Positions 525 to 29,001 are shown, counted from the first letter of the stretch. The stretch: DNA of 32,000 nucleotides from an uncultured bacterium (GCA_964640155.1 CAZXEQ010000002.1:450001-482000); one strand, 5' to 3'. The notes: generated by a model from the letters alone, not told the origin. Numbers and translations are program-made.

Positions 525-610
525 GTAAGATTCTCCTGAGCGACCTCTCTATTTTAAGGCAATAGGGGGTGAATTTGCAACATAAGATCATTCTTAATAA
601 ATTGGAGAGT

Positions 611-745
611 CTCGTATATAAAAGTGTATTCTTTTGAAAAGTGGCGGGTCCTGCCACTCGTCAGCCCCATCGTGCTCACAAAAAGTTGCGCTCGACGGGG
701 CGCCCCGCCGAGTGTCACCCGCATCTATAAAGGACACACTTTTTT
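611..745 (-). repeat. Family-1 GC-rich inverted-repeat element, copy A (MITE/REP-like, unclassified)
   Basis: The reverse complement aligns along its full length with 5127-5266. It has 14-nt terminal inverted repeats (AAAAGTGTGTCCTT/AAGGACACACTTTT type) and a central G/C hairpin CTCGGCGGGGCGCCCCGTCGAG. Confidence 0.8.
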
Positions 746-753
746 GAACACGA

Positions 754-1941
754 TCAAATCGGATGTACTTCAAAGAAAAGACATTTAAGGTATTGTGTTT
801 CTGGGATATTGGGAAGGATAGGATGATCAAGCCCTTGTGTCCCACGATGAATTAGCTTTAATATTTTTTTCGCATCACGAGCTGCATCCAAAAGAATATC
901 CTCAAATAGAGATTCTTGAATATGATGAGAGCAGGAAGCGCTGATCAGGACCCCTCCAGCGCGAAGCATTTTCATGGCTCTTAAATTGATTTCCTTGTAT
1001 CCGGCCAATGCTCCCTCAATTGAATCTTTTCTTTTGGTGAAAGAAGGAGGATCCAAAATAATCATGTCGAACTTTTTCCCTTCTCGATCAAATTGCTTTA
1101 GAAAATCAAATCCGTTTCCCAGTAAACCTTCCCATCGTGTCTCAACATGATTCAGGGCTGCGCTTTTCTGAGCGATTGCGAGTGCTTCTTCAGAAATATC
1201 AATGCTCAATACTTTTTTTGCTCCTCCCTTCAAACAAGACATAGAAAAGCCACCTGTATAAGAAAAGCAATCCAAGACTTCCTTGTTTTTTGAAAGCGAA
1301 GAAGCCATTTGTCTATTGTCTCTCTGATCCAAATAAAAACCTGTTTTATGCCCATGAAAAACGTCCACCCAAAAATGAATTCCATTTTCTTCTATTTCTA
1401 AAAATTCTGGCGGAGAATTTCCATCCAAACACCCCTGAATTAAAGGAAGACCTTCTAAAGCGCGTGCTTGGAAATCATTTCTTTCATAAATTCCTTTGGG
1501 TTGGAAAATACTTTTTAGTATTTCCACAACCAGGGATTTATGGATATCCATCCCGAGCGTGGTTGTTTGGATAATCAAATAATCTTGATATTGATCTACG
1601 ATAAGACCTGGAAGTCCATCTGATTCACTGTTCACCCAGCGTAGACTTGAAGCTGAAGGAAGATAGGTTTTTCGCCATCGGAGGGCTTCTTTAATGCGTT
1701 TTTCAAAAAAAAGCACATTGATTGCTTCATCTTGTTGGCGAGTCAATAATCTAATAGAAATGGTGGAGAGAGGATTAAACCAACCGATGCCTACCCATTT
1801 CTTTTGATCCGTATAAATGGCAACAGGTTCTTCAGATCGGATTTCTTTATCTACATATTTAATTTGAGACTTGTAAATCCAAGGGTGTCCGGCTTTGACA
1901 CGATCAAAGCCTCTTTTGGAATCGACGATGATTTTTTTCAT
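754..1941 (-). CDS. rlmI: Class I SAM-dependent rRNA (cytosine-C5) methyltransferase, RlmI/YwbD-like (PUA-like N-terminus plus methyltransferase domain)
   Basis: 395-aa ORF. Motifs: GHPWIY N-terminus, DGLPGLIVDQY, GHKTGFYLDQRDNR, VLDCFSYTGGFS (SAM-binding loop) and FDMIILDPPSF. Confidence 0.8.
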   Translation of the reverse strand: MKKIIVDSKRGFDRVKAGHPWIYKSQIKYVDKEIRSEEPVAIYTDQKKWVGIGWFNPLSTISIRLLTRQQDEAINVLFFEKRIKEALRWRKTYLPSASSLRWVNSESDGLPGLIVDQYQDYLIIQTTTLGMDIHKSLVVEILKSIFQPKGIYERNDFQARALEGLPLIQGCLDGNSPPEFLEIEENGIHFWVDVFHGHKTGFYLDQRDNRQMASSLSKNKEVLDCFSYTGGFSMSCLKGGAKKVLSIDISEEALAIAQKSAALNHVETRWEGLLGNGFDFLKQFDREGKKFDMIILDPPSFTKRKDSIEGALAGYKEINLRAMKMLRAGGVLISASCSHHIQESLFEDILLDAARDAKKILKLIHRGTQGLDHPILPNIPETQYLKCLFFEVHPI

Positions 1942-4969: not shown

Positions 4970-5126
4970 CATGATAGAGTTCAACTTTAAATTTTTTGTA
5001 GGGACTGCAATTGGAGTTGCGCTAGGAATTCTTTATTCCAAATTCATTCATCATTTCTTCCTTTATTCCTTCTAAATTGTAGAGGACTCCTAAGTATTTT
5101 CTTCCCGCATCGTGTAATCCATGTGC

Positions 5127-5266
5127 AAAAAAGTGTAGCCTTTACAGATACGGGTGACACTCGACGGGGGAGAGGCCCCGCCGCGCGCAATTTTTCATGA
5201 GCACGGTGGGGCCTGACGGGTGGCAGGACCCGTTTCTTACTTGAAGGACACACTTTTATATACGAG
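5127..5266 (+). repeat. Family-1 GC-rich inverted-repeat element, copy B
   Basis: Aligns with the reverse complement of 611-745 at about 80% identity by eye, with long identical blocks. Terminal repeats are AAAAGTGTAGCCTT...AAGGACACACTTTT. Confidence 0.8.
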
Positions 5267-5294
5267 ATCAGTGTGTACAACGATTTTTCTAAGA

Positions 5295-5323
5295 TTGTCG
5301 CTTATTTTGATCAATGTTATAAT
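5295..5323 (+). promoter_or_regulatory. Putative promoter TTGTCG-17 nt-TATAAT placed 7 nt upstream of the epimerase ATG
   Basis: -35 at 5295-5300, -10 TATAAT at 5318-5323, ATG at 5331. There is no Shine-Dalgarno sequence in between. Confidence 0.45.
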
Positions 5324-5330
5324 TAATTTA

Positions 5331-6221
5331 ATGATATTCCTCACGGGTTCTACAGGTTTTGTCGGTCGAAATTTGCTTCCTCATCTGGCGCAAAAAGGGT
5401 ATTCCGTTCGCTGTTTTATTCGTGAAAATTCTCCCACAGAACATCTTGGCAGTGACTGCTTTGACAAGGTGGTAGGAGATATTTTAGACGAATCTTCCTT
5501 GCGATATTCCATGAGGGGGGTAGATACCGTTATTCATTTGGCGGGTGTTCGAATGGAAACAGGAGCTTCAAGTTTTGAAAGTGTTTTTTATTTGGGAACC
5601 CGACATGTGATTGATGTTGCAAAAGCTGCAGGTGTAAAACAATTTATTTTATTTAGCACTTATGGAGCTCGTCCCAAAGCCAGTAGTAAATTTCATCATT
5701 ACAAATGGTTAGCAGAGGAATATTTAAGGCATAGTGGTTTAAAATTTACTATTTTTCGCCCAACACTTATTTATGGACCCTATGATCATTTTGTAACAAG
5801 ATGGATCCGAAAGTTAAAAATACTTCCAATCGTTCCTATTCTAGGAAATGGTTTAAATCTTTTACAACCGGTCAGTATTTTCGATGTTATTGAGTGTATT
5901 TTACGATCTTTAGAAGACTCCACAAAATTAGGGATGACTTATGAATTGGGGGGGCCTGACCGCTTGACCTTTTCTGCAATTATTAGAAAGATTGGAAAGA
6001 CGATTGGTAAAAGAAAGCCTCTTTTTCATTGGCCTCTAGGGATGGCAAAAGTATTTGCCTATTTGATGGAAATAGGTTTTTCTTATCCTGCCTTCACTCC
6101 AGATGAACTTCTGCGATGGATGGAAGATCGTACGTGTGATCATTTACTTGTTGAGAAAGAATTCAAGATGAAGCTGATGCATTTTGAGGAAGGGCTTCAA
6201 AAATATTTTGCTCCGAAATAA
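5331..6221 (+). CDS. NAD(P)-dependent epimerase/dehydratase-type SDR (NDUFA9/NmrA-like)
   Basis: The track ORF starts at 5220, but that extension runs through repeat copy B. ATG at 5331 gives MIFLTGSTGFVGRNL (a GxxGxxG Rossmann motif at the N-terminus); a YKWLAEEY (YxxxK-like) motif follows. Confidence 0.8.
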   Translation: MIFLTGSTGFVGRNLLPHLAQKGYSVRCFIRENSPTEHLGSDCFDKVVGDILDESSLRYSMRGVDTVIHLAGVRMETGASSFESVFYLGTRHVIDVAKAAGVKQFILFSTYGARPKASSKFHHYKWLAEEYLRHSGLKFTIFRPTLIYGPYDHFVTRWIRKLKILPIVPILGNGLNLLQPVSIFDVIECILRSLEDSTKLGMTYELGGPDRLTFSAIIRKIGKTIGKRKPLFHWPLGMAKVFAYLMEIGFSYPAFTPDELLRWMEDRTCDHLLVEKEFKMKLMHFEEGLQKYFAPK

Positions 6222-21823: not shown

Positions 21824-22027
21824 TTATCCCCCTGAAACAGCTCGAACAAGTTCCAAAGAATCTCCATCTGAAAGGAGAATTTCTGTATATTCTTTTTTGG
21901 TCAATGCTTTCCCGTTGAGTTCAGCAACAACCCATTTGGAATCAAGGCCCAGTTGTTGAATAAGAGCGTCAATGGTCTGACTTGTTTTGATTTCCATTTT
22001 TTCTCCATTGACAGAGATTCTAGGCAT
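21824..22027 (-). CDS. thiS: Sulfur-carrier protein ThiS
   Basis: The track ORF extends to 22063. ATG at 22027 gives MPRISVNGEKMEI...DGDSLELVRAVSGG, the ThiS length with a C-terminal GG. It overlaps the thiH stop by 8 nt. Confidence 0.8.
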   Translation of the reverse strand: MPRISVNGEKMEIKTSQTIDALIQQLGLDSKWVVAELNGKALTKKEYTEILLSDGDSLELVRAVSGG

Positions 22028-23132
22028 TGAGCGTTGCCTCCCAATCCTTCCAAACAGGTTCATACCCTGATTTATAAATCACTTGAGCAATTTCTTCGGG
22101 GGTGCGTTTGTCTTCGATTTGAAATTGTTCTTCAGCCCCTTTTGGGTTTTCATAACCACCAGGCTCTGTTCGAGAACCTGCGCTCATTTGTGTAATTCCA
22201 AGACGCATGAGTCCATCACGTAAAGCAGGTTCTTCACGTGTTGAAAGAACTAAGCCAATATCTGGGAAAGTTAATCGAAGGGCACAAATCAATTGTGTAA
22301 ATTCTCTGTCTGAAATGGAATATTTTGGGGAAAATTCTCCCGCAGCTTCTCGAATGCGAGGAAGACTGATGGTGAGCATGGTTTTCCAGCAATTCTTAAG
22401 TAAATATTGTGCATGGGCAGCCAAACAAAGCGCATCTTTTCTCCAATCAGATAACCCCAAAAGAATTCCAATGCCAATGCGTTTCATTCCTGCAGCGGCA
22501 GCTCTTTCAGGTGTTTCAAGCCGCCATTCATAATTTTTCTTTTTACCTGCGAGATGAACTTCGGCGTATTCTTGCTTTTGATAAGTTTCTTGATAAACCA
22601 CTAATCCCTCAGCGCCAGACTCCACCCACATTTTATAAACAGCTTCTGTTTGAGGAGCAAGCTCTAGAGAAATAGAAGGGATTTCCTTGTGTAAAAGTTG
22701 AATCACTTCAGCGACATATTCAGGAGGTGTATGACGCGGGTGTTCTCCTGAAACAAGTAGCAAATGACGAAATCCTTTCTTGAGAAGAATACGTGCTTCC
22801 ATTAATACTTGTTGAGGGGTTAAGGTAAGACGAGCAATTTTATTTTCTCGACTGAAACCGCAATAAGTACAAGTATCAACACATTCATTTGAAAGATAAA
22901 GGGGAGCATAAAGTTGAATGACTCGGCCAAATCGTTGTAGAGTGAGTTGATGAGAGGCATGAGCTATTTTTTCTAAATGAAAAGAAGCTCGAGGAGAAAT
23001 GAGTACGGAAAAATCTTCTAAGTTTCTTTGTGATTTTTGAAGACTGCGAGTGACAGCTTCATCATTGGCAGATAAAGAACGTTCTTGAAGAAGTGATAAG
23101 GGAATACGTTCGAGTTCTTGGGTAAAGCTCAT
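22020..23132 (-). CDS. thiH: 2-iminoacetate synthase ThiH (radical SAM tyrosine lyase)
   Basis: 370-aa ORF with the radical-SAM cluster motif CVDTCTYCGF. It lies between thiG and thiS. Confidence 0.85.
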   Translation of the reverse strand: MSFTQELERIPLSLLQERSLSANDEAVTRSLQKSQRNLEDFSVLISPRASFHLEKIAHASHQLTLQRFGRVIQLYAPLYLSNECVDTCTYCGFSRENKIARLTLTPQQVLMEARILLKKGFRHLLLVSGEHPRHTPPEYVAEVIQLLHKEIPSISLELAPQTEAVYKMWVESGAEGLVVYQETYQKQEYAEVHLAGKKKNYEWRLETPERAAAAGMKRIGIGILLGLSDWRKDALCLAAHAQYLLKNCWKTMLTISLPRIREAAGEFSPKYSISDREFTQLICALRLTFPDIGLVLSTREEPALRDGLMRLGITQMSAGSRTEPGGYENPKGAEEQFQIEDKRTPEEIAQVIYKSGYEPVWKDWEATLNA

Positions 23133-23134
23133 GT

Positions 23135-23917
23135 TTATACTCTTTCAAGAAATCCTGTCAAGGGACTAGAGGCTTGAGCAATGACTTGGGTGGATGCAAG
23201 GCCAGATTCATAAGCGAGTCTACCGGCTTCAACTCCTAATTTAAAAGCTTTTGCCATTTGAATAGGATCTTGCGCAGTTGCAATGGCAGTATTAATGAGG
23301 ACTGCATCGGCTCCCATTTCCATTGCTTCGGCGGCGTCGGAAGGAGCGCCTAATCCGGCATCGATAACGACAGGAACAATGGCTTGTTCAATGATGATTT
23401 GAAGTGCTTCTTTTGTTTTAATCCCTTGATTGGATCCAATCGGAGATCCTAAAGGCATGACAGTGGCTGTTCCTACTTCGGCTAATCTTTTCGCTAGAAT
23501 GGGATCTGCATTGATATAAGGAAGGACAATAAATCCTTCTTTGACTAAAATTTCAGCTGCTTTGAGCGTTTCAATGGGGTCAGGTAAAAGATAGCGAGGA
23601 TCGGGTGTAACTTCGAGTTTAATCCAATTTGAAATTTCTGCAGTACGAGCTAAACGAGCAAGTCGAACAGCTTCTTCAGCTGTTTGTGCGCCTGAAGTAT
23701 TAGGAAGAAGCTGATATTTTTTCGAATCAATGAAATCTAAAATGTTTTCATGCGGTTTAGTTAAATCGACACGACGAAGGGCAACAGTGACCAGTTCAGT
23801 CCCTGAAGCTTCTAAGGCTTGAGACATGATTTTCCCAGAAGCAAATTTCCCAGTTCCAAGTAAAAGTCTAGAAGCAAAATTTTTTCCTGCAATGGTTAAG
23901 AGATGTTCAGAGCTCAT
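23135..23917 (-). CDS. thiG: Thiazole synthase ThiG
   Basis: 260-aa ORF with [13 protein letters not shown] (Schiff-base Lys), [13 protein letters not shown] and [21 protein letters not shown]. Confidence 0.92.
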
Positions 23918-23940
23918 GAAGTCTATCCTTTAAAAGGCTT

Positions 23941-23969
23941 AATATACGCTTGAGTACAGGCATTGTCAA
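23941..23969 (-). promoter_or_regulatory. Putative promoter TTGACA-17 nt-TATATT for thiGHS
   Basis: On the minus strand: TTGACA (23964-23969), a 17-nt spacer and TATATT (23941-23946). Only about 15-20 nt of leader, containing AAAGGA, precedes the ATG at 23917. Confidence 0.5.
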
Positions 23970-24018
23970 TGTTGTGAGGAATAGAGTTTTATCCTGTCGA
24001 TAGACATATCATACATTT

Positions 24019-24444
24019 GAATTGTCCAATAGAGTGTTTATCAAGAAAGGGTCCTGCCCAACGAATCATGATTTACGATCTTCTCTCGTACGCATTCCAG
24101 CGACCGTAAAGAGATAATATTTAGTTTTCGTTTGTTAAAGCAGGAGATGAGTTTCGAAGAGGGGTGTCTTTTCCTTCGTTGCTTACACTCGCGTGCGATC
24201 GCTCATCATTAGGATTCGTTGGTCACCCTCATTTATTTTTATGAATTGTTCAACGGAGTGTGAAGACCATTGGAAATCGAGTGAGCGCGGACCCCGATTG
24301 ATCGGGGGAACGAGATTTCCGTTGAGTTAGTTTCCCTCGCAGGGGGAAACTAACGTGTCTGAACGCTCTGTTGGACGATTCATCCATACGAGACAGTCTA
24401 AGACGCTAGAGTGAGTGATGAAAGTTGTGCAGGACCCTTTTTCT
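24019..24444 (+). repeat. Composite GC-rich structured region built from family-1-like and family-2 repeat modules (possible large structured RNA or nested MITEs)
   Basis: Outer 12-bp inverted repeat AAAGGGTCCTGC (24046-24057) / GCAGGACCCTTT (24429-24440). It encloses a 165-nt hairpin domain (closing stem 24058-24072 / 24205-24222) and the family-2 element 24243-24381. No credible ORF is present. Confidence 0.6.
24243..24381 (+). repeat. Family-2 structured element, copy C
   Basis: 25-bp closing helix (24243-24267 / 24357-24381) around a core homologous to 28884-28982. Shared hairpins are CCCCGAT..ATCGGGG and GTTTCCC..GGGAAAC. Confidence 0.7.
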
Positions 24445-24458
24445 ATGAACAATGGTCA

Positions 24459-25235
24459 TTACTGGGTGTTCAGATCTACCCTTAAAGCCTTTTCAAATTC
24501 AAGGCGAACGGTGTTCGTAAGTTTATCAAATTCATTCATTTGAAAAACAGAAGTATCAATGGGGGGAAGCACTCGAAGAGAGCCAGAAACTTTGGCGCTG
24601 AAAATCCAATCTCCTTTGGGGATGGCGTCTCTTGTTCCTGTGATAACAATGGGAAGAATCGGTCTCTTCTCTTTGAGGGCCAACTTGAAAGCCCCATATT
24701 GGAAGAGATTCATTTCATTTGTATGGCTTCGTGTCCCTTCAGGAAAGAAGATGACAGACATGCCTGCTCTGAGATATTCTGCTGCTTCACGATAAATTTT
24801 CTTGATGCTTCCATAATTACCTCGTTCAAGTTGAATATGTTTGATGAGTCTTAAGCACCATCCAACCAGCGGGAGTTTAAAGAGATCGCTTTTGGCAACC
24901 CATTTAAACTGCATTTTTGTTTTGTATAGGACAATGATGTCGGCCAGGCTTTGATGATTTGCGACCACAACATAAGTTTCTTTGTGATCAATATTCTCGA
25001 GCCCTGTGACTTTTAGTTTCCAATAAGGATTTAATCTGATAATGGTGCTGGCCCACCAATAACATTGTTGGTGGGTTACTCTTTTTTGTTTGTCGAAGGG
25101 GCATAAAATGATGGTCAGAAAGAGTACAACAAGGAACAAAATGAATGTCGTAAGAACAAAAAGGGACCAAATAATAAGGGATAACAGTCCCTCTTTGAAT
25201 CTGGGTTTTCTTTTCCCTTCTACTTCAGTAGACAT
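24459..25235 (-). CDS. plsC: 1-acyl-sn-glycerol-3-phosphate acyltransferase
   Basis: 258-aa ORF with an N-terminal TM segment and the acyltransferase motifs NHQSLADI (HxxxxD) and FPEGTRS. Confidence 0.85.
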   Translation of the reverse strand: MSTEVEGKRKPRFKEGLLSLIIWSLFVLTTFILFLVVLFLTIILCPFDKQKRVTHQQCYWWASTIIRLNPYWKLKVTGLENIDHKETYVVVANHQSLADIIVLYKTKMQFKWVAKSDLFKLPLVGWCLRLIKHIQLERGNYGSIKKIYREAAEYLRAGMSVIFFPEGTRSHTNEMNLFQYGAFKLALKEKRPILPIVITGTRDAIPKGDWIFSAKVSGSLRVLPPIDTSVFQMNEFDKLTNTVRLEFEKALRVDLNTQ

Positions 25236-25459: not shown

Positions 25460-28400
25460 ATGAAACGATTGAGCGCTATTTCTGTCTTCAAATCTTTTTT
25501 AATAGGAATATTTGTCTTCACTCAAGTTTATGCGGACAATTCTCCAAATACCTCCAGCGCGGCTCGAGTTAGAAATCCAAGAATTTCTTCTTCTCAAATT
25601 TCTCCTGTTTTTGCAAAGCTAGATTCAGAAGCATTGATTCTTAGAAAAATAGGAACTGAAAATATATTGGCCAAAGGAAGTTTGGCTCAAATGGGAAACA
25701 AAATGGTGGTGGTAGGTAAAAATAAAACCATGAGTTTGTCGAGTGTGGTTCAAAAAACTTTTATAGAACAAGATACCCTTCAAAATGAACTCCGAAGTGT
25801 GGGCGTTTCAAGTCAGGCTTTAATACAACCTCCTGAAATGACAAGTGAAGTTTTTGAATTTCAAAATTCTTTTGTGGTTGTAAAAAGTACGAGCTTTGTT
25901 GTTTCTAAGCCTCAACAATTGGCTCAGAATTCAAATATTTTTAAAAAATATAAGGGAAAACGTAAAGGAAGTCAGCCGGTCAATGTTGCTTCTTTAGATC
26001 GTGAGAAATTAAAAGGGTTTCGATCCTTTATGCAAAATGAGCTGAGGCAACTTCCTGATAATGATCCTTTGAAAGTGGCAGCAGCTCAAGGCGAAGATGC
26101 TGTTCTCCAAGCAGTAGCAGAAGGTAAGGGTAAATATGAAGTCATTGATACGTTATTTGTTCCAAAGGCGGTTTTACCAGAAGTCAATGGACGGGTTCAA
26201 TTGCCTTTTCCAACCAAACATTTGCAATCCATGGATTCTGAAAATTTGGATCAAGGGGTAGAAGAACGTGTAGTGGTTGAAAAGCCTAGCATGCATGAAA
26301 GTGGTAAAGCTACTTTTCATACTGAATTTATGTCGGGGTTTACCAAGGGGAATTCATGGGAATGGGAACGTCGTTGGAATTTTCCTTCTGGTTTTTTTCG
26401 CATTACTTTAGGAGCAAGCTATGGTTTGGGTTTGAGAATTCCCATTGATTTAAAAGGAGAGGTTTCTCCCACTGAAATTTTGACAAAAGATGTAGAAGAT
26501 AAACCTCGAAATGTGAATACAAAAATGGAAGTTGATACTTTAGATGCAGGTGCAGATTTTTATCGACGTGTGGGACTTCCTCAAAGTAAGATTTTTGAAG
26601 GGAAAGAAGCTGTATTTGAAGCCAAGTTTGGCTATGGCTATAAACTTCGTGCGCTTTGGGATGATTTGCTTCATCATCCTTTTTCTTATATAGGCATTGA
26701 TGAAAGCCAACATTTTAAACCTCCCATGGGACGGGGCCATGATGGGCCTATTATTCCGATTCCTGCGGAAGCAACACAAACAAAATTTGAGGGTGGAATT
26801 TTAAATGGATTTGCACAAATTGGAATTAGAATTACAGGAAAAGGGACTGTGTTATTAGATTTTCAACCTTTTCTGGGGGCTAAAGAGTTAAAGAAAGAGG
26901 AGATTAAATTTCCTAATACAAGTTCTCAGACTCAAGAAAATGAGCGCCCTAATGCAAATTCCCAGACTAAAAAAAGTGAACTTCCTGCCATTTCTGGAAA
27001 TGGAGACAAATTGGAAAAACCTTTTGGTTTCACGCTCGGTAATCCACGATATAAAATTGATTTGACGCTTGTTCCTGTTGTGCGCTTGGAGGCTACGGTT
27101 GGCGTGGATTGGTTAAGCAGACATTTTAGTACTGGATGGATTGATTTGAATGCTTTAAGCGTAGATATTGGGAGTGTTTCCTTCAGTCGTCATAGTGGGA
27201 CGCGCAAAAATTATAAATTTTCGCAAGGGAAAAAGAAGTTTGAGAAAATTGGTAGTAACTATGCTGAAAATATTAAAGATGGAGATATTGTTGGAATCCA
27301 GTCTGTTCCCAGTGGGAAATTTGTACGTGGAGGGCTTCCAAATGCAGTTGAATGTGGTCTTGGCGCAACCAGTCCACATTGTCATCTTTGGGAGGCCTTT
27401 AAATTTCATGATTTAGGTGGGGGAAAAGTGGCACTTCAATTGATTAAAAATGCGCAATATATTCGTGCAGGTTTGGGTGAAAAAAAGTTTCTTGCTGCGA
27501 TTAGCCCTCATAAACAAAGTTGGGAAACTTTTAAAATGGTGAAGTTGGGAGATGGAAAGGTCACATTTCAAGCTATTAACAGTGGAAAATATGTTCGTGT
27601 CAATTCAGCTGAAGGAGATCGTTTGACTTCAGATAGTGCTAGAGCGGGCGCTTCTGAAACTTTTAGATTTTGGCCAGCTTGGGAAGTGGTGAATGAACTT
27701 CCTGTGACTGCTAAGAAAGATATAGTAGGAATTGAATGTGTTAAAAACGGTAAATATATTCGAGCTGGTATGGATGAAAAATCTCGACTTGCTGCAGTGA
27801 GTCCACACCTTCAAGTCTGGGAAGCATTTAGAGTCAAAGATCTAGGAGATCGAAAAATCGCTTTGCAATCTGTGAAGAGTAACAAGTATGTGAGTATCTC
27901 TTATAATATTCCTCGTATGGATGTGATGGCTCTTAGTTCCGATATTGGACCTGAAGAGACGTTTAAGAAAGTAGATTTGCGTGATCATGGGAAAGTGGCT
28001 CTTCATTCTGGGGTTTTGGGAAAATATATTCGTGCAGGAATGGGGCAGAATTGTTTTTTAGGAGCAGGTAGTACTTCTCCCGGAGAATGGGAGGAATTTC
28101 GTTTTCATAGAGTGCCTCAGACAGAAACAACAGCTCGTTCTCAGTGGCAGAGTCAGCCCCGTCGTGAGAATGCTCAAGAAGAAACTGATGAAGAATCTAG
28201 GATACAAGATCAACCAGAAGAATCAGCCTCTGAAGAAAATGCAAGTCAGGATGCTTCCGAGAATAAGGAACAAGCTCCTTCTCGTGCCCAAAGTGCAAAT
28301 GACAATGCTTCTTCAGAAAATTCTGCAGGAAATAATCCCATCGATTGGAATTCAATCTCACAAGGGATATCAGGATTAACCCCAAATAGAGGAAATACAC

Positions 28401-28855
28401 AAGCTTCTGATGAGGATTCTGATTCTACTTCGGGGCAGACTTCAAATCCTTCTTTGAAACCACCCAAAAAGCCAGGTATATCTTCAGGGAATAAGCCGAG
28501 CACAGGAAATAATTTCCCTGATATCAATCCTAATTGGAAACCATCTCCTTCAACGGGGAGGAAACCGGGGTCGAGTAAACCTCCTATTGTTTTAAAACCA
28601 GGGAAGGTGAATACAAAACCAAATGTTTCTTATCCTGTTACCAAAAAACCTGCTACAACAAAACCCCCCATAACATTAAAACCTTCAAAAACGCTTAATA
28701 ATAAAAACATGAATTGGGGAAATTTTAAATCGAATAAGGCAACGGGATCTTCTTCTCAAATGAATCAGACCAGATTATCTTCTAAAAAAAGTGCAGCAAC
28801 TCAAGGATCAAATTTTACATTGTTAAATGCAAGGTCATCAAATTCGCAGTCATAA
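25460..28855 (+). CDS. Large secreted multidomain protein: beta-rich N-terminal region, two fascin-like beta-trefoil domains, and an S/N/P/K/T-rich disordered tail
   Basis: 1131-aa ORF with GGGAGG upstream and signal peptide MKRLSAISVFKSFLIGIFVFTQVYA. Six ~45-aa subrepeats of the type GKYIRAG...L.A.SP....WE.F.....GD.K.ALQS fall roughly at nt 27278-28115. The C-terminal ~250 aa are low complexity, with KPPIVLKPGK/KPPITLKPSK repeats. Confidence 0.85.
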   Translation: MKRLSAISVFKSFLIGIFVFTQVYADNSPNTSSAARVRNPRISSSQISPVFAKLDSEALILRKIGTENILAKGSLAQMGNKMVVVGKNKTMSLSSVVQKTFIEQDTLQNELRSVGVSSQALIQPPEMTSEVFEFQNSFVVVKSTSFVVSKPQQLAQNSNIFKKYKGKRKGSQPVNVASLDREKLKGFRSFMQNELRQLPDNDPLKVAAAQGEDAVLQAVAEGKGKYEVIDTLFVPKAVLPEVNGRVQLPFPTKHLQSMDSENLDQGVEERVVVEKPSMHESGKATFHTEFMSGFTKGNSWEWERRWNFPSGFFRITLGASYGLGLRIPIDLKGEVSPTEILTKDVEDKPRNVNTKMEVDTLDAGADFYRRVGLPQSKIFEGKEAVFEAKFGYGYKLRALWDDLLHHPFSYIGIDESQHFKPPMGRGHDGPIIPIPAEATQTKFEGGILNGFAQIGIRITGKGTVLLDFQPFLGAKELKKEEIKFPNTSSQTQENERPNANSQTKKSELPAISGNGDKLEKPFGFTLGNPRYKIDLTLVPVVRLEATVGVDWLSRHFSTGWIDLNALSVDIGSVSFSRHSGTRKNYKFSQGKKKFEKIGSNYAENIKDGDIVGIQSVPSGKFVRGGLPNAVECGLGATSPHCHLWEAFKFHDLGGGKVALQLIKNAQYIRAGLGEKKFLAAISPHKQSWETFKMVKLGDGKVTFQAINSGKYVRVNSAEGDRLTSDSARAGASETFRFWPAWEVVNELPVTAKKDIVGIECVKNGKYIRAGMDEKSRLAAVSPHLQVWEAFRVKDLGDRKIALQSVKSNKYVSISYNIPRMDVMALSSDIGPEETFKKVDLRDHGKVALHSGVLGKYIRAGMGQNCFLGAGSTSPGEWEEFRFHRVPQTETTARSQWQSQPRRENAQEETDEESRIQDQPEESASEENASQDASENKEQAPSRAQSANDNASSENSAGNNPIDWNSISQGISGLTPNRGNTQASDEDSDSTSGQTSNPSLKPPKKPGISSGNKPSTGNNFPDINPNWKPSPSTGRKPGSSKPPIVLKPGKVNTKPNVSYPVTKKPATTKPPITLKPSKTLNNKNMNWGNFKSNKATGSSSQMNQTRLSSKKSAATQGSNFTLLNARSSNSQS

Positions 28856-28864
28856 AGCTAAAAG

Positions 28865-29001
28865 AAGAAGGATTTATTTTTAGGACCGTTGATGAGGCTT
28901 GTGCTCATGGTCCCCGATATTCATCGGGGAAACAAGCCGAATCACCGAGCGAAGTTCCATCGGTGGGGGAACTGAGCGTGTCCGAAAAATAAATCCTTCT
29001 T
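28865..29001 (+). repeat. Family-2 structured element, copy D (fills the gap between convergent genes)
   Basis: 22-bp closing helix AAGAAGGATTTATTTTTAGGAC / GTCCGAAAAATAAATCCTTCTT around a GC-rich core homologous to copy C. Confidence 0.7.

Follow-up and report, generated by a model that had tools for sequence, protein, structure and literature searches.

The window considered here is a 32,000-nt stretch of DNA from an uncultured bacterium (GCA_964640155.1, CAZXEQ010000002.1:450001-482000), and all coordinates are positions in this window. Its gene content is housekeeping only, and its G+C content lies between 34 and 43% in 1-kb steps. Pfam and NCBIfam scans revealed no transposase, mobile-element, integrase or reverse transcriptase gene in the window, and the related loci that were fetched carry no transposase either. 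The structured element that we analyzed resides in a 541-nt spacer (23918-24458) flanked by two minus-strand genes, for which the relevant features are as follows.

23135-23917, minus strand: thiG, followed by thiH and thiS (operon including its promoter, 21824-23969)
23941-23969, minus strand: thiG promoter-like site from a promoter scan, TTGACA-17-TATATT, near-consensus (11 of 12 positions)
24459-25235, minus strand: plsC-like gene for a 1-acylglycerol-3-phosphate acyltransferase, from gene and domain annotation

The thiG promoter is located approximately 25 nt upstream of the thiG start codon. All repeat elements in the spacer lie past the plsC stop codon and upstream of this promoter, and the plus strand of the element that we call copy C is antisense to both plsC and thiG. 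Promoter scans of the spacer give only the minus-strand thiG promoter and no promoter-like site on the plus strand. A TPP riboswitch upstream of thiG was considered and discarded, because the window contains no match and the promoter leaves a leader of only ~25 nt. Small open reading frames do not explain the spacer either: those present encode 20-45 amino acids and overlap on both strands. Beyond plsC, positions 25460-28855 (plus strand) encode a protein of 1131 amino acids with only a weak DUF7910 match. This protein has just 18 homologues at E≤1e-20 in a database of 5.8 billion proteins, and on this comparison it appears to be a large protein restricted to the lineage.

Copy C spans 139 nt and can be drawn as a three-way junction closed by a long helix, P1.

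24243-24261, plus strand: left arm L of P1, with 19 of 19 positions paired to 24363-24381, including four G·U pairs
24262-24267, plus strand: 5' side of a GA/GA loop (24262-24263) and of the adjoining helix (AGAC, 24264-24267), whose partners are GA (24361-24362) and GUCU (24357-24360)
24268-24324, plus strand: hairpin A of the three-way junction, comprising CA/UG, UGGAAAUC/GAUUUCCG, a second GA/GA loop, GU/AC and the apical CCCCGA-UUGA-UCGGGG
24326-24354, plus strand: hairpin B, a near-perfect palindrome with a 13-bp helix, GUUAGUUUCCCUC/GGGGGAAACUAAC, and a conserved U·G pair
24357-24362, plus strand: 3' side of the AGAC/GUCU helix and of the GA/GA loop, within the conserved motif CGUGUC(Y)GA
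24363-24381, plus strand: right arm R of P1, which also pairs with an upstream arm, S

The initial annotation had paired 24243-24267 with 24357-24381, and this pairing is correct base by base, consisting of 19 bp, the GA/GA loop and 4 bp. It had also drawn attention to four positions read as T-G, T-G, G-T and T-G. A base-by-base listing shows that each of these is a G·U wobble when read on the plus strand and A·C when read on the minus strand, and that P1 has no other non-Watson-Crick pairs (T24247-G24377, T24250-G24374, G24255-T24369 and T24259-G24365, at helix positions 5, 8, 13 and 17). Over the whole of copy C there are six G·U pairs, and A·C pairs are absent.

The predicted RNA fold of copy C has a free energy of -73.3 kcal/mol on the plus strand (z -8.2) versus -48.6 on the minus strand. 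Among 1593 sliding windows of 139 nt, copy C has the most stable fold. The difference between its strands, -24.7, is the most extreme value among these windows (mean -2.7, sd 6.8), although G/T-rich coding windows reach -23.5. The P1 duplex alone gives -26.8 on the plus strand versus -11.4 on the minus strand. With DNA energy parameters a similar asymmetry is obtained (-33.6 versus -23.9), and thus RNA is not singled out over single-stranded DNA (ssDNA) by these energies.

The core of copy C recurs once in the window, and we term the resulting family Family 2.

28865-29001, plus strand: Family-2 paralogue X, which shares the three-way-junction core of copy C, is closed by an unrelated, perfect helix of 17 bp and is located between convergent genes
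24262-24263/24361-24362, 24279-24280/24312-24313, 28894-28895/28939-28940 and 28951-28952/28974-28975, plus strand: GA/GA loops of C and X, at four non-homologous structural positions

Both copies, which measure 137-139 nt and are the only two in the 32 kb, consist of a conserved core of ~100 nt inside a long inverted repeat that differs from copy to copy. The cores align and have in common the motifs GACC-UUG … CCCCGAU/AUCGGGG … GGGGGAA-N5-CGUGUC, whereas the closing arms are unrelated (GAATTGTTCAACGGAGTGT in C and AAGAAGGATTTATTTTT in X). Family 2 is represented by three sequences only, namely the two paralogues and one orthologue of X, and these provide few independent events. Among them, 9 of 36 core pairs have changed on both sides. 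Core cells are paired in 90.6% of cases, versus at most 48% with slid partner columns, and these slid controls contain at most one double change. The observed covariation was reached by none of 500 shuffles. The apical stem of hairpin A is invariant in all three sequences, its lower stem covaries with that of paralogue X, the U·G pair is conserved in three of three sequences, and the GAC/GUC helix next to P1 is retained in X.

Every one of the four 2x2 internal loops of C and X, including the second loop of hairpin A (24279-24280 with 24312-24313), is 5'-GA/5'-GA on the plus strand. Where X has GA/GA, copy C has UA/UA, or the converse. Exchange between these two forms requires transversions on the same strand, and therefore it is not the product of a DNA process that copies palindromes or of deamination bias. 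Copy X, whose arms are perfect, folds with only slight strand asymmetry (-64.1 versus -58.3) and has no third arm. It starts 10 nt past the stop codon of the plus-strand gene that precedes it. With convergent genes on its two sides, X would have its top strand in a 3' untranslated region in either orientation, which is not so for copy C.

The sole close relative found is a metagenome-assembled genome (MAG) labelled Candidatus Auribacterota (GCA_041906865.1; contig JAYRIK010000199.1), with ~84% nucleotide identity over the shared stretch. Its corresponding locus, L056, is syntenic (thiS-thiH-thiG-plsC-DUF7910). However, the thiG-plsC spacer measures 299 nt in the MAG versus 541 nt in the window, and the two share only the 64 thiG-proximal nt that bear the promoter (23918-23981; 95% identity). 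Neither S, nor the intervening element M, nor copy C is present in the orthologous spacer, which instead holds a Family-1-like element, a related but longer copy at positions 2352-2566 of L056. The absence or replacement of elements in the MAG indicates that this spacer is a site where structured repeats land or accumulate.

In contrast, X is present in both genomes (window 28865-29001, L056 6923-7059), and in the MAG its ~103-nt core is reverse-complemented between the arms while the flanks remain collinear. The two cores are 88.3% identical when one is reverse-complemented and 59.8% identical as they stand. This in-situ flip was seen in a single assembly; the orientation in the window is confirmed by an independent Logan contig. 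The 17-nt arms are identical at 34 of 34 bases, versus 70.6% and 90.4% identity in the coding flanks, and thus the arms are at least as conserved as the neighboring genes. By our own arithmetic, the chance of 34 of 34 identical bases at 84% average identity is ~0.003. All 12 differences between the cores fall in the 5' half, and the 3' ~50 nt are identical. The top strand of the flipped copy starts ~5 nt past the stop codon of the convergent gene.

The remainder of the spacer contains other repeats, one of which is related to a second structured family in the window, Family 1.

610-756, minus strand: Family-1 copy a, a different structured repeat whose end module recurs around copy C
5122-5267, plus strand: Family-1 copy b, inverted relative to copy a
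24018-24040, plus strand: upstream arm S, contiguous with a Family-1-like end sequence
24035-24062, plus strand: left copy of the Family-1-like terminal module (…AAGAAAGGGTCCTGCC…), forming an outer helix with 24424-24451 (inverted repeat I5, 82% complementary)
24049-24228, no strand assigned: palindromic element M, between S and L, closed by CCAACGAATCATGAT/ATCAT..GATTCGTTGG
24424-24451, plus strand: right, inverted copy of the Family-1-like module, ending 8 nt from the plsC stop codon

The two Family-1 copies are inverted with respect to each other and ~4.4 kb apart. Their more stable strand tracks the orientation of the element and not the genomic strand, being the minus strand for copy a and the plus strand for copy b. 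The open reading frame at 5220-6221 is listed with a GTG start that overlaps copy b, and its true start is probably a different one. The module at 24035-24062 resembles window positions 5222-5238. Element M has no strand preference (-52.2 on the plus strand versus -52.9 on the minus strand). The segments TCTCGTACG (24088-24096) and CATACGAGAC (24385-24394) resemble the Family-1 termini TCTCGTATAT … ATATACGAGA and are inverted around M and copy C; this similarity hints that they might be a further degenerate element boundary in the composite.

Arm S had been described as a second copy of the left arm at 24019-24038, and the identity to L is indeed 16 of 20. Tandem duplication was rejected as the origin of this repeat, because the similarity stops at the 20-nt arm. 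S runs directly into the Family-1-like terminal sequence AAAGGGTCCTGCC, which itself has an inverted partner at 24424-24451. The fallback offered in the initial annotation, that the upstream arm is a solo arm of another element, is therefore favored, since S is joined to a Family-1-like end that has its own partner. S is best read as the leftover terminal arm of a neighboring element that is able to compete thermodynamically, and not as a designed competitor. The spacer is thus a patchwork of a Family-1-like outer shell, element M, copy C and a solo arm.

Searches for known families and for further copies extended well beyond the window. Rfam 15 gave no match at the gathering threshold across the window, and at E≤10 only noise (E≥3.7) around C and X. 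An exact scan of a genome collection with the core pattern returned 29 matches, of which 28 are chance occurrences in G+C-rich genomes and one is the X orthologue in the Auribacterota MAG. The same pattern produced 17 chance matches and no family member in metagenome contigs. Two pattern scans of viral contigs gave no real match, and the plasmid and phage collections gave none, so that a plasmid or phage origin was rejected on the basis of these searches. A covariance model of the core found no additional copy in ~250 kb, comprising the window, searched with filters off, and related loci, including those of relatives with 47-79% protein identity. Outward look-ups with exact proteins reached only contigs that are 100% identical and represent the same strain. 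Among the genomes reached by these sequence searches, Family 2 appears to be confined to the source species and its sister. The literature searched describes no non-coding element in Auribacterota, a candidate phylum without cultivated members.

Two classes of known RNA were examined and rejected. The hammerhead ribozyme combines a three-way junction with the core CUGANGA … GAAA and is cleaved at a UH site. Copy X contains UUGAUGA…GAAU and lacks the essential C3, copy C has no equivalent, and no Rfam ribozyme matches at E≤10. A reading as a bacterial Y-RNA-like molecule, with a long closing stem and a tRNA-like module, finds no Rfam match, and Ro/TROVE and RtcB are absent from the proteins of the window as judged by Pfam and NCBIfam.

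Short-read assemblies provide a separate view of these elements. Logan contigs from four other samples match the window at 100% identity, and their assemblies end at 714 (Family-1 copy a), 5183 and 5204 (Family-1 copy b), 24077 and 24107 (element M) and 24355, whereas copy X is crossed. The break at 24355, just past hairpin B, occurs in two independent short-read assemblies. This pattern suggests that the genome contains further copies of the sequences at the break points, or that these sequences tangle de Bruijn graphs.

Family 2 is a small, previously undescribed family of structured repeats in an uncultivated Auribacterota bacterium. We estimate at roughly 0.5 the probability that copy C itself is a lineage-restricted, non-coding structured repeat of the ERIC/bcr1/MITE kind, with bcr1 and ERIC as its closest counterparts. 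The most likely mechanism, which we infer from the patterns described here, is that the fold of Family 2 is selected on one strand and that the element acts or spreads in single-stranded form, which could equally be RNA, for example as a 3'-end structure behind a gene as in the case of X, or ssDNA on the lagging-strand template. On this view, the four G·U pairs of helix P1 would be transitions that occurred after insertion and kept the helix of the top strand. Such a pattern would fit weak purifying selection on the top strand together with a mutational skew in the same direction. The combination of a conserved core with variable arms could reflect either insertion into pre-existing palindromes or long maintenance of pairing.

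How much weight the G·U pairs carry depends on mutational bias. Comparison of S, L and the complement of R yields five inferable substitutions, and all five are of the G·U type on the plus strand, in agreement with the pairing-preserving transitions noted earlier. The accompanying premise that each transition would favor either strand with equal chance does not hold, because the plus strand is rich in G and T: the TG/CA ratio at 4-fold degenerate sites is 1.65 overall, 1.72 in plus-strand genes and 1.56 in minus-strand genes. Since the skew is present in genes of both orientations, the bias is linked to replication and not to transcription. We take the G/T-rich strand, which is the top strand of both copies, to be the lagging-strand template. 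By our estimate, which assumes a transition-only equilibrium, the skew gives a probability of ~0.51-0.61 per event in favor of G·T on the plus strand. Five of five events then have p≈0.06, for a feature that was chosen because it is conspicuous.

These values bear directly on the rival explanation that survives best, which is that copy C is purely a DNA-level palindrome and that its G·U pattern results from chance and replication-associated deamination (C→T and A→G) on the G/T-rich strand. The TG/CA ratio of 1.65 whatever the orientation of genes and the rising cumulative GC skew, which climbs steadily along the window, are as this explanation would have them, and so is the shift of the window-wide mean energy difference, E(+)-E(-), to -2.7, with coding windows extending to -23.5. 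The small asymmetry of copy X, the lack of any in element M, and the lone one-sided pair change of the flipped MAG copy, which is A·C on its top strand (pair 8-66), point the same way. However, with the skew taken into account five of five events still have a probability of only ~0.06, the GA/GA loops at four independent positions need same-strand transversions, and the stable strand of Family 1 follows element orientation. We therefore regard a purely DNA-level origin as the less likely account, at something over one chance in five.

The proposal in the initial annotation that selection acts on a plus-strand RNA helix can be sustained in part. The one-strand features, namely the G·U pairs, the conserved U·G, the GA/GA loops and the covariation, stand; RNA specifically is not singled out, and the wobble pattern has p≈0.06. 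For copy C alone this pattern is suggestive and not decisive, and the strand signature of the family as a whole is the better argument. There is reasonable evidence that Family 2 has evolved as a folded single strand, of RNA or ssDNA, and that for both copies in the window this is the plus strand.

A further explanation is that the elements are 3'-end structures, such as terminators or mRNA stabilizers, and that copy C with its shell serves plsC on the minus strand. The composite begins 8 nt past the plsC stop codon, and the scan gave no other terminator-like site behind this gene. X lies 10 nt past the stop codon of a plus-strand gene and, when flipped in the MAG, ~5 nt past that of the convergent gene, and its arms are conserved at 34 of 34 bases against 71-90% identity in the coding flanks. 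Effects of ERIC and REP elements on mRNA stability (PMC3184786) offer a precedent. However, the strand of copy C that plsC transcription would produce is the weak one (-48.6), with four A·C mismatches in P1. A terminator scan found no intrinsic terminator (a G+C-rich stem with a T-run) at C or X on either strand. In addition, the sister genome lacks copy C and has a different element in the spacer. This explanation is accordingly unlikely, although it retains slightly more credit than the regulatory reading that follows.

The initial annotation also raised the possibility of a plus-strand regulatory RNA in which R toggles between L and S and selection keeps both pairings through G·U transitions. 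Its observation that the upstream arm can pair with the same right arm is borne out by a mismatch-free helix of 23 bp (24018-24040 with 24360-24382) that includes four G·U pairs, compared with the 19 bp of L:R. The S:R duplex has an energy of -28.5 on the plus strand versus -16.8 on the minus strand; like L:R (-26.8 and -11.4), it pairs without mismatch on the plus strand and only poorly on the minus strand. When each conformer is forced on 24010-24395, S:R gives -134.6 and L:R -132.7 kcal/mol, a gap of 1.9 kcal/mol, so that the two are nearly isoenergetic. The near-equal energies and the five of five G·U-preserving substitutions among S, L and R are what such a switch would show. However, a fold of the whole spacer forms L:R and leaves S unpaired, S is contiguous with a Family-1-like module whose partner is elsewhere (24424-24451), X has no third arm, and the substitutions have p≈0.06 under the measured skew. 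The promoter scan found no site for the plus strand, which is antisense to both neighbors. Because S, M and copy C are missing from the sister spacer while the promoter block of thiG is 95% conserved, a conserved regulatory switch for plsC or thiG is unlikely. Thus, of the two-conformer proposal the energetic balance stands, and the functional part is improbable, with perhaps one chance in ten.

Equally speculative is the idea that the Family-2 core is a mobile module active as a single strand, which would home into pre-existing hairpin loops or flip as a heritable invertible cassette. If this were true, the same three-way-junction RNA could be presented at the 3' end of either of two convergent genes, and the wobble-only decay of the arms of copy C would be the footprint of selection on that strand.

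Returning to copy C as a structured repeat, which we prefer, the family as it stands is a well-documented object of an ordinary kind. Repeats of this structured type can give rise to terminators, change the stability of mRNAs and interrupt assemblies, and here four independent short-read assemblies are fragmented exactly at these elements. If the top-strand bias were general, Family 2 would constitute a new and compact motif of structured RNA or ssDNA in which tandem G·A loops recur, and it would offer a clean natural case in which selection on a folded strand can be separated from replication-linked skew, with the flip of X as a built-in control.

Among known systems, bcr1 of the Bacillus cereus group and ERIC (IRU) of Enterobacteriaceae are the most similar. 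These elements are ~127-155 bp long, have a non-conserved genomic distribution, are transcribed, and exhibit compensatory changes at the RNA level (PMC3184786). Like them, Family 2 consists of intergenic imperfect palindromes of 100-160 nt with a stable predicted RNA fold, its positions vary between relatives, as the lack of copy C in the sister genome shows, and 9 of 36 pairs carry compensatory changes across its three sequences. However, bcr1 and ERIC have conserved termini and tens to hundreds of copies, whereas Family 2 has unrelated arms and two copies in 32 kb.

Flanking duplications are typical of these repeats, being 5-bp direct repeats for bcr1 and TA for ERIC. Inspection of the flanks by eye revealed 'AT' at C and an offset 'GCTA' near X, neither of which is shared or convincing as a target-site duplication, and no empty site was recovered among the loci compared.

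Miniature inverted-repeat elements (MITEs) such as Correia/CREE, RUP and Nezha resemble Family 2 in being small and non-coding, in having long terminal inverted repeats, and in nesting or clustering in intergenic regions. They also occur as dispersed copies that are present or absent in close relatives, as C is absent from and X is present in the MAG. MITEs, however, conserve the terminal inverted repeats on which a transposase acts, whereas C and X share the core and not the ends, and no parent insertion sequence for Family 2 was found in the window or the fetched loci.

REP, BIME and REPIN elements and IS200/IS605-type hairpins act in a strand-specific manner as ssDNA (PMC3333891, PMC3116915), and some insertion sequences insert into pre-existing palindromes, so that a conserved insert is framed by host-specific arms (PMC1525189). 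The location of both Family-2 top strands on the G/T-rich strand is reminiscent of the IS200/IS605-type hairpins. REP elements, which occur in high copy number together with a RAYT gene, differ in being 20-40 nt long and G+C-rich with a conserved head, whereas copy C has 139 nt and an A+T-rich closing helix. Neither a RAYT or Y1 transposase gene in the window nor an empty hairpin site was seen.

Integron attC sites, which carry R/L core sites and lie in cassette arrays beside intI, differ in the opposite sense, since they conserve structure with variable sequence, whereas Family 2 conserves its center and varies at its base, and it is accompanied by neither an integrase nor an array. With two-state regulatory RNAs such as riboswitches and attenuators, copy C shares the ability of R to pair with either of two upstream strands at near-equal energy, which is a thermodynamic possibility only. 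Unlike the leader of a riboswitch or attenuator, it is antisense to its neighbors, lies upstream of the -35 box of thiG and is absent from the orthologous locus, and unlike a riboswitch it has neither an Rfam match nor a conserved aptamer resembling a ligand-binding site. The closest likeness of copy C is therefore to bcr1 and ERIC, with which it has in common its size, its intergenic palindromic form, its stable predicted fold and its variable position between relatives.
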